Source: Lama guanicoe (lineage: Eukaryota). Taken from it: a stretch of DNA of 64,000 nucleotides. The stretch spans positions 1,867,063 to 1,931,062 of the forward strand of contig MU053557.1 of NCBI GenBank assembly GCA_013239625.1. Direction: 5' to 3'. A model generated the notes under the pieces. It searched no databases. It saw only the letters and a program-made list of their open reading frames with translations, and was not told where the DNA came from. How positions within the stretch are numbered: the first letter of the stretch is position 1; each line of letters starts with the position of its first letter. Shown piece by piece: positions 26,111 to 27,217 of this stretch. Both the position numbers and the translations under genes were made by a program.

Positions 26111-27217
26111 TCACCGTGGTTTTGATTTGCATTTTCCAAAACACTGAAGATGTGGAGCATCTTTTCGTGCACTTACTGGCATCTGTGTACCTTTCTGGAT
26201 AGGTACCTGCTCAAAAGTCTTCCCTGTTTATTAACTGAGTTGTCGTTTTGTTACTGAGTTGTAATAGTCCTCTGTGTATTCTGGACACTAGACCCGTATC
26301 AGATATATGGTTTGCAAATATTTTCTCCCATTCTCTAGACTGTCTTTTCACACTTTTGACATTGTCCTTTGAAGTGCAAAAAGAGTTTTTTATTTTGATG
26401 AAGTCAGTTTTTCCTATTTTTTTCTTTTGTTGCTTGGGCTTTTGGTGTCATACCTAAGAAATCACCGTGTAATCCAAGATCACAAAAATTTACACCTATG
26501 TTTTTTCCTAAGAGTTTATAGTCTTAACTTACTCATTTAGGTCTTTGATCCATTTTGAGTTAATATTGTATTTGGTGTGAGGGAGAGATCCATCTTCATT
26601 CTTACTTCTCTTTGCCGGTTTCTCCAAGCAGGACCCTCTTCTTATTTTGAAAGATGGTCGGCTGCTTTTGGTAGGCACGCTCGGTCTGAATGTCCGCCAT
26701 CTTCCCGGCTGCCTGAAAAAAGGGTCACCGTGGTTTTGATTTGCATTTTCCAAAACACTGAAGATGTGGAGCATCTTTTCGTGCACTTACTGGCATCTGT
26801 GTACCTTTCTGGATAGGTACCTGCTCAAAAGTCTTCCCTGTTTATTAACTGAGTTGTCGTTTTGTTACTGAGTTGTAATAGTCCTCTGTGTATTCTGGAC
26901 ACTAGACCCGTATCAGATATATGGTTTGCAAATATTTTCTCCCATTCTCTAGACTGTCTTTTCACACTTTTGACAGTGTCCTTTGAAGTGCAAAAAGAGT
27001 TTTTTATTTTGATGAAGTCAGTTTTTCCTATTTTTTTCTTTTGTTGCTTGGGCTTTTGGTGTCATACCTAAGAAATCACCGTGTAATCCAAGATCACAAA
27101 AATTTACACCTATGTTTTTTCCTAAGAGTTTATAGTCTTAACTTACTCATTTAGGTCTTTGATCCATTTTGAGTTAATATTGTATTTGGTGTGAGGGAGA
27201 GATCCATCTTCATTCTT
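26111..27217. repeat. 493-bp direct duplication (26111-26603 and 26725-27217) flanking the RPS11 fragment
   Basis: Read base by base at offset 614: identical apart from one substitution seen (26362 T vs 26976 G). Confidence 0.96.
26604..26724 (-). pseudogene. RPS11: 3'-truncated (tailless) processed fragment of ribosomal protein S11 mRNA: TOP tract, 5'UTR and codons 1-32
   Basis: Minus strand reads CCCTTTTTTCAGGCAGCCGGGAAG ATG GCG GAC ATT CAG ACC GAG..., translating to [32 protein letters not shown] (ATG at 26700), the conserved RPS11/uS17 N-terminus. No intron after codon 5 and no poly(A). Confidence 0.95.

Follow-up and report, generated by a model that had tools for sequence, protein, structure and literature searches.

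Tailless, that is 3'-truncated, retropseudogenes were reportedly described by Schmitz et al. in 2004, and endonuclease-independent retrotransposition is said to have been described by Sen et al. in 2007. According to the available part of Noll et al. (2015, PMC5322556), tailless retropseudogenes are 5'-complete, 3'-truncated retrocopies of small RNAs or mRNAs that lack an A tail and are ascribed to LINE-1 reverse transcription primed inside the RNA; the screen presented there was for target duplications of 8-35 nt, and the copies end where the RNA is A-rich and can pair with the target. LINE-1 inserts flanked by target duplications of more than 100 bp, up to 5.3 kb, as well as "tailless" ones, have been recovered in cultured cells, as far as the accessible text of Servant et al. 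(2017, PMC5223499) goes; duplications of this size made up <10% of the HeLa inserts and 57-91% of those in NER-deficient lines. The same text explains large duplications by a second-strand break far from the nick, citing Gilbert 2002/2005 and Symer 2002 (PMC5223499).

In the excerpted account of Onozawa and Aplan (2016, PMC5110952), class 2 templated-sequence insertion polymorphisms lack a target duplication and are frequently accompanied by small deletions. Expression of ORF2p leads to small tandem duplications at insertion sites and to insert-free duplications beside endonuclease motifs, as reported in the available portion of a preprint (Mendez-Dorantes et al. 2024, PMC11702581). In chimeric RNA/LINE-1 retrocopies, e.g., U6/L1, both parts are co-inserted and mostly share the same orientation, according to the part of the source at hand (bioRxiv 10.1101/2025.02.02.635956).

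The locus reported here looks like a variant in which two known deviations from canonical LINE-1 insertion come together, and it does not call for a class of its own. An earlier sequence-only reading of the same DNA had presented it as the "reverse of a normal retrocopy"; taken as something new, this framing is not supported, since tailless retropseudogenes were already described, as the available part of Noll et al. makes clear (2015, PMC5322556).

Structure of the locus

The window, i.e., the whole stretch of 64,000 nt that was analysed, comes from Lama guanicoe (GCA_013239625.1, contig MU053557.1, 1,867,063-1,931,062 of the forward strand). All coordinates given without a contig name are window positions, and the locus occupies 26111-27217. 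It consists of copy 1 of a 493-bp direct repeat (26111-26603), an insert of 121 nt (26604-26724), and copy 2 of the repeat (26725-27217). Copy 1 is made of the 3' part of an old LINE-1 in + orientation and continues the LINE-1 sequence upstream of it, and copy 2 continues into the LINE-1 sequence downstream.

Read on the minus strand, the insert opens with CCCTTTTTTCAGG. In mRNA sense it is composed of a C (26724), 38 nt of RPS11 exon 1 (26686-26723, minus strand; a 23-nt 5' UTR and codons 1-5), the first 81 nt of RPS11 exon 2 (26605-26685, minus strand; codons 6-32), and a T (26604), with exon 1 fused straight to exon 2 as in the spliced form. The 5' UTR is pyrimidine-led (CCTTTTTTCAGG...), and the ATG at 26700-26698 (minus strand) opens 32 RPS11 codons, whose residues align with residues 1-32 of 40S ribosomal protein S11/uS17 from solved ribosomes (E 4.7e-16). 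The Pfam match to Ribosomal_S17_N reaches 24.7 bits and stays under the 27-bit cut-off because the RPS11 piece is short.

The outermost base at either end of the insert has no counterpart. On the priming side, 26604 is A on the + strand (T in mRNA sense), where the LINE-1 would have T (27218) and the mRNA would have C (after GAGAAG in the gene); on the cap side, 26724 (G on the + strand, C in mRNA sense) matches neither the gene (T before CCTTTTTT) nor the LINE-1 (C at 26110). These single bases are filler at the two joints. The 121-bp RPS11 insert of the sequence-only reading is therefore to be corrected to 119 templated nucleotides, between a first and a last base that match nothing.

A function of the insert's own is unlikely, since it lies antisense within a decayed LINE-1 and its RPS11 frame ends as RPS11 after 32 codons. 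An 85-codon stop-to-stop frame (26532-26786, minus strand) spans the insert but is off the RPS11 frame. Past codon 32 the RPS11 frame itself leaves RPS11 sequence, so that no chimeric protein is suggested.

Origin of the RPS11 sequence

The RPS11 gene was found on contig C6946 (G000:C6946), where exon 1 (C6946:3304362-3304399) matches insert positions 2-39 and the start of exon 2 matches positions 40-120, both at 100%. A GT..AG intron of 731 nt follows codon 5 in the gene; it is missing from the insert, which is therefore derived from RNA. The insert's end point lies inside exon 2, at ...GGCAAAGAGAAG; past this point exon 2 of the gene runs on with CTACCGCGATAC..., and the RPS11 mRNA reads CTACCGCG.... 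Neither poly(A) nor an A run is present in the insert at 26604. A splicing intermediate, which would place the insert's end at an exon boundary, was considered and rejected, because exon 2 goes on in the gene.

Two RPS11 retrocopies are assembled; their identity to the insert is 93% and 86%, while the spliced gene reaches 119/119 (100%). One of them, the full-length L002, begins with an extra G followed by the insert's same first C, and carries a poly(A) tail and a 13-14-nt target duplication. As this first C is the second base of the insert, the cap site is placed there. L002 extends roughly 450 nt beyond nt 119 to its poly(A), whereas the insert stops at nt 119; the extra base at the cap joint also differs, being C in mRNA sense in the insert versus a cap-derived G in L002. 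The other retrocopy, L004 (G000:C2832:16789759-16790400, approximately), is older, with 86% identity over its 5' part, intron-less and A-tailed. It starts ~28 nt upstream of the main cap site, and an upstream RPS11 start site was therefore retrocopied at least once.

Judged by these sequence comparisons, the template is shown to be a mature, spliced RPS11 mRNA, capped at the main start site. Much of what the sequence-only reading had said about the insert was borne out by the animal's own RPS11 gene and by L002, namely 32 unmutated RPS11 residues (no change in 119 nt of gene exons), the loss of the intron after codon 5, an abrupt and tailless end, which proved to be internal to exon 2, the exon 1-2 junction and the cap-site start. 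It had also considered that a pseudogene might fit the insert better than the mRNA does; both assembled retrocopies fit less well.

Two near-identical duplications

Positions 26111-26603 and 26725-27217 (offset 614) are equal at 492 of 493 positions, with T at 26362 versus G at 26976 as the lone difference. Immediately beyond the repeat the two copies disagree at either edge (26110 C / 26724 G; 26604 A / 27218 T), and the borders are therefore exact; the 493-bp direct repeats with one difference, as originally noted, stand.

When 25700-28700 was compared with the animal's own 2.05-Gb assembly, all 41 non-self alignments were LINE-1 relatives with 68-77% identity. The relatives align through 25700-26603 and again from 26725 on to 27305; none of the 41 alignments crosses 26604-26724, while five stop exactly at 26603 and four begin exactly at 26725. 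The flanks are one old LINE-1, broken only by the insert and the duplication. As the relatives are just 68-77% identical, the 99.8% identity of the two copies does not come from LINE-1 family likeness; the duplication must be young, or else an artefact. Eight of the nine relatives supplied aligned at the variant position, and they have G in four cases, A in three, C in one and T in none. The T at 26362 in copy 1 is therefore derived, and the G at 26976 in copy 2 is ancestral.

A second duplication lies 395 bp downstream of copy 2, where two 350-bp units (27613-27962 and 27963-28312) stand head to tail and are equal at 350/350 positions. The first unit starts within an 11-A tract (27604-27614), of which it takes in the final two A, the joint between the units is blunt, without insert and without microhomology, and the bases around the units differ (A/C before, A/T after). 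By our own reading, neither border of the 350-bp duplication has an endonuclease motif in the required geometry. Just past this duplication an imperfect (CA)n microsatellite is present (28420-28462). The 350-bp tandem duplication was absent from the sequence-only reading, as were the unmatched base at each RPS11 joint and the C in place of G at the cap end.

Across the whole window, the 493-bp and 350-bp pairs are the only young direct repeats, beside one old repeat of 75% identity (20086-20707). No similar duplication was found in 20 sampled 10-kb regions (200 kb) along another contig of 34.8 Mb, and the background rate of such duplications is below ~1 per 90 kb (95% bound; ~260 kb examined). 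At such a low rate, two independent events within 2.2 kb are unlikely; the two duplications are a local cluster and not an assembly-wide feature.

The sequence-only reading had called the event very recent. With one difference in 843 duplicated bases, none in 119 against the source gene, and a typical mammalian mutation rate, the event dates back no more than a few million years and is probably polymorphic, which agrees with that assessment.

Along the + strand, copy 1 is followed by A, by RPS11 in antisense (nt 119 down to nt 1), by G and by copy 2, so that the insert has the polarity of a first-strand (antisense) cDNA extending the + strand at the 3' end of copy 1. A LINE-1-endonuclease-like nick site, TTTT/GA (27216-27221, + strand), is found at the far end of copy 2, with its predicted nick after 27219, 2 nt past the repeat end. 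The CTTTT/GA reported earlier at 27215-27221, no more than 2 nt from the repeat end, is thus indeed present. The + strand of the window holds 97 TTTT/RA sites, and positions no more than 2 nt from one make up 0.76%.

Comparison with described systems

Like tailless retropseudogenes, the insert is 5'-complete, starting at the cap-site C of L002 and of exon 1, and it is truncated at its 3' end by at least 10 nt and has no oligo(A). A direct target duplication flanks the copy, and mRNAs are among the published sources, as far as the available part of that work lists them. Unlike them, the locus has a target duplication of 493 bp, far outside the 8-35 nt given in the same part of that work; moreover, the mRNA 3' of the insert's end point is not A-rich, and an unmatched base stands at the joint. 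For the LINE-1-type target site (TT/AAAA on the sense strand of the insert), the candidate counterpart here is the TTTT/GA 2 nt past the repeat end, against the background of 0.76%.

The locus shares with the large-duplication LINE-1 inserts a direct duplication of more than 100 bp, here 493 bp, around an RNA-derived insert. The inserts in the accessible text on that system are engineered reporters, mostly in repair-deficient cells, whereas here the 5' end of an mRNA is found in an animal assembly. Class 2 insertions resemble the insert in being, in the excerpted account, short tailless cDNA patches whose source transcript lies far away and whose joints carry unmatched bases; by the definition given in that account the locus falls outside this class, as 493 bp are duplicated, and it also differs in having an endonuclease-like site.

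The rearrangements induced by ORF2p are similar in comprising small tandem duplications, also without insert, and full-length pseudogene inserts joined without microhomology, as stated in the available portion of the preprint (PMC11702581). They differ in that, in the same portion, they come from LINE-1-induced cell clones, the canonical inserts are all poly(A)+, and the extra 5' base is G (PMC11702581). As in chimeric RNA/LINE-1 retrocopies, a copy of a non-LINE RNA adjoins LINE-1 sequence here, but RPS11 lies antisense to an old resident LINE-1 that continues on both sides, which sets the locus apart from that group. A canonical processed pseudogene, for which L002 is an example, has a 3' end, a poly(A) and a 7-20-bp duplication; the insert has neither of the first two, and its duplication measures 493 bp. 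In a non-exhaustive literature search, supplementary lists aside, no account came up of a germline genome in which a 5' piece of an mRNA is flanked by more than 100 bp of duplicated target.

Proposed mechanism and alternatives

The reading that we tentatively favour, with somewhat less than even confidence, is a very young LINE-1-driven tailless retrocopy, for which target-primed reverse transcription (TPRT) began inside the mRNA and the second break lay 493 bp away. The LINE-1 ORF2 endonuclease would nick the + strand at or near TTCTTTT/GA (27219/27220, in the present copy 2); the freed 3' end would then lose two T, gain one unmatched A, and prime within the mRNA instead of in the poly(A) tail. 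The reverse transcriptase would run off the capped 5' end, and the end of the cDNA, with one unmatched G, would be end-joined to the DNA end from an opposite-strand break 493 bp upstream, after which fill-in of both strands would duplicate the 493 bp. The insert-free 350-bp duplication would most simply be a second product of the same nicking and fill-in episode; alternatively, it may mark the stretch as fragile.

Several observations agree with such a course. The TTTT/GA stands on the correct strand and at the correct end (chance 0.76%, for one pre-set strand and end), which supports the action of a LINE-1 endonuclease; the start of the insert at the first C of L002 points to run-off at the cap; and the derived base in copy 1 would follow from fresh synthesis of one of the two copies. 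The local clustering of the two duplications and the published precedents also speak for it. The evidence that supports a putative dependence on LINE-1 (ORF2p endonuclease and reverse transcriptase) consists of the nick-site motif and the strand polarity.

Other observations count against it. As the nick motif lies 2 nt off the repeat end, trimming must be assumed; the base at the cap joint is C in mRNA sense and not the usual cap-derived G; the 350-bp duplication lacks an endonuclease motif in the required geometry; and the opening of a 493-bp duplex between the two nicks requires explaining. Immediately beyond the end point, on its 3' side, the mRNA (CUACCG...) showed no base pairing with the primer end. 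Compared by eye, the copy closes with 9 A-rich nt (AAAGAGAAG) similar to AAAAGAATGAAG of the target, but what follows in the mRNA (CUACCGCG) is not rich in A, and one unmatched base separates the end of the copy from the target. The internally primed TPRT with a displaced second nick that the sequence-only reading had put forward as one possibility is the best available account and fits in its polarity and in the geometry of TTTT/GA, but is short of primer/mRNA pairing and has its motif 2 nt out of place.

An assembly or library artefact is the first alternative to be weighed, and we consider it unlikely though far from negligible. Each segment would then be single-copy and no RPS11 piece would be present in the animal's DNA; overlapping contig ends or retained haplotypes would have been joined head to tail, with a cDNA contaminant or a chimeric molecule closing the gap. 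A troubled local assembly would look like what is seen here, two near-perfect duplications within 2.2 kb and none in 200 kb elsewhere, and the single mismatch could be a heterozygous site. However, no stretch of N marks either duplication, the closest gap being at 18443-18511, and the flanks of N gaps were without overlap in both of the two that were examined.

Public runs were searched with 26540-26790 (18 sampled words; 19 runs, a set outside the species-labelled raw-read runs): 16 of them contain some part of the query and none contains at least half, and the highest share, 0.44, equals the figure to be expected from the RPS11 part by itself. A metagenome scan with the last 30 bases of the repeat gave no matches. 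That no independent run in this search contains the joints, and that the animal's own assembly has no second contig with this locus or with an empty allele, speaks for an artefact. An artefact, however, does not predict a start at the cap site, 100% identity to the spliced gene, a first-strand polarity that runs into TTTT/GA, or clean one-base joints on both sides. Both joints also need reads that bridge LINE-1 and RPS11, and random chimeras are single molecules that seldom reach the consensus.

A real event that was independent of LINE-1 appears rather improbable. Here a staggered break with long 5' overhangs would have been filled in, and non-homologous end joining would have trapped a free run-off cDNA (or RNA:DNA hybrid) of the RPS11 5' end; or serial template switching within one repair or replication synthesis would have proceeded from local DNA to the mRNA, back 493 bp, on, and back 350 bp, leaving a small duplication-normal-duplication pattern whose filler is RNA-templated. 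The unmatched base at each RPS11 joint and the blunt 350-bp joint are marks of end joining, like those of class 2 templated-sequence insertions in the excerpted account (PMC5110952), although that account defines the class by the absence of a target duplication. A single event would account for both duplications, and the missing priming complementarity at the mRNA end point is in keeping with it; RNA-templated break repair has been reported in human cells, according to the available part of the source (PMC12065846). On the other hand, the TTTT/GA on the right strand and end would have to be a coincidence (0.76%), and serial template switching normally leaves microhomology at the joints, none of which is seen.

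A bolder reading, which appears rather improbable, is that one germline repair episode made both duplications, two neighbouring, widely staggered breaks (493 and 350 nt) being filled in and one of them patched with the run-off cDNA of a capped, spliced mRNA. Copying or gene conversion of the 121 nt from a processed RPS11 pseudogene is highly improbable, for although two RPS11 retrocopies are present in the assembly and a younger one could be unassembled, those two match the insert less well (93% and 86%) than the spliced gene does (100%), such a patch has no reason to stop at the cap site, and L002 has G before its first C where the insert has C.

Two further candidates were rejected. Twin priming or a co-inserted new LINE-1 disagrees with the orientation and with the age of the LINE-1, and for a retroviral-type strong-stop cDNA no primer-binding-site-like sequence was seen past the end point, a weak argument as it was judged by eye.

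Implications and surroundings of the locus

If real, the locus is a natural and very young case that unites two features known until now largely from separate cases, internal (tailless) priming of LINE-1-type reverse transcription on an mRNA and a second break hundreds of bases away, and such a distant second break has so far been seen mainly in cultured, often repair-deficient cells. It would also mean that a LINE-1-type route makes small tandem duplications in the animal germline. If both duplications did come from a single episode, insert-free small tandem duplications may be scars of aborted retrotransposition or of RNA-assisted repair. A search could be built on this anatomy, looking for nearly identical direct repeats of 100-2000 bp that enclose a short insert beginning at the cap site of an mRNA. 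It could show what number of small tandem duplications, insert-bearing or insert-free, go back to intermediates of retrotransposition.

Elsewhere in the window, a second and younger-looking LINE-1 in + orientation (16772-19900) has an endonuclease frame (16772-17233) and a reverse transcriptase frame (18027-18392), and is interrupted by the window's only N run (18443-18511). Pfam was run on 66 of the 183 open frames of at least 70 aa, and the two with matches both belong to this LINE-1, at 16772-18392 (endonuclease and reverse transcriptase). Outside the window, a Cullin-family search of this genome for another patch of spliced RNA yielded 57 exon-level matches, among which no doubled exon was obvious. 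Finally, 42005-42973 has long open frames on both strands (up to 307 aa) without a Pfam match and looks like a G+C-rich island, which may be a promoter or first exon.
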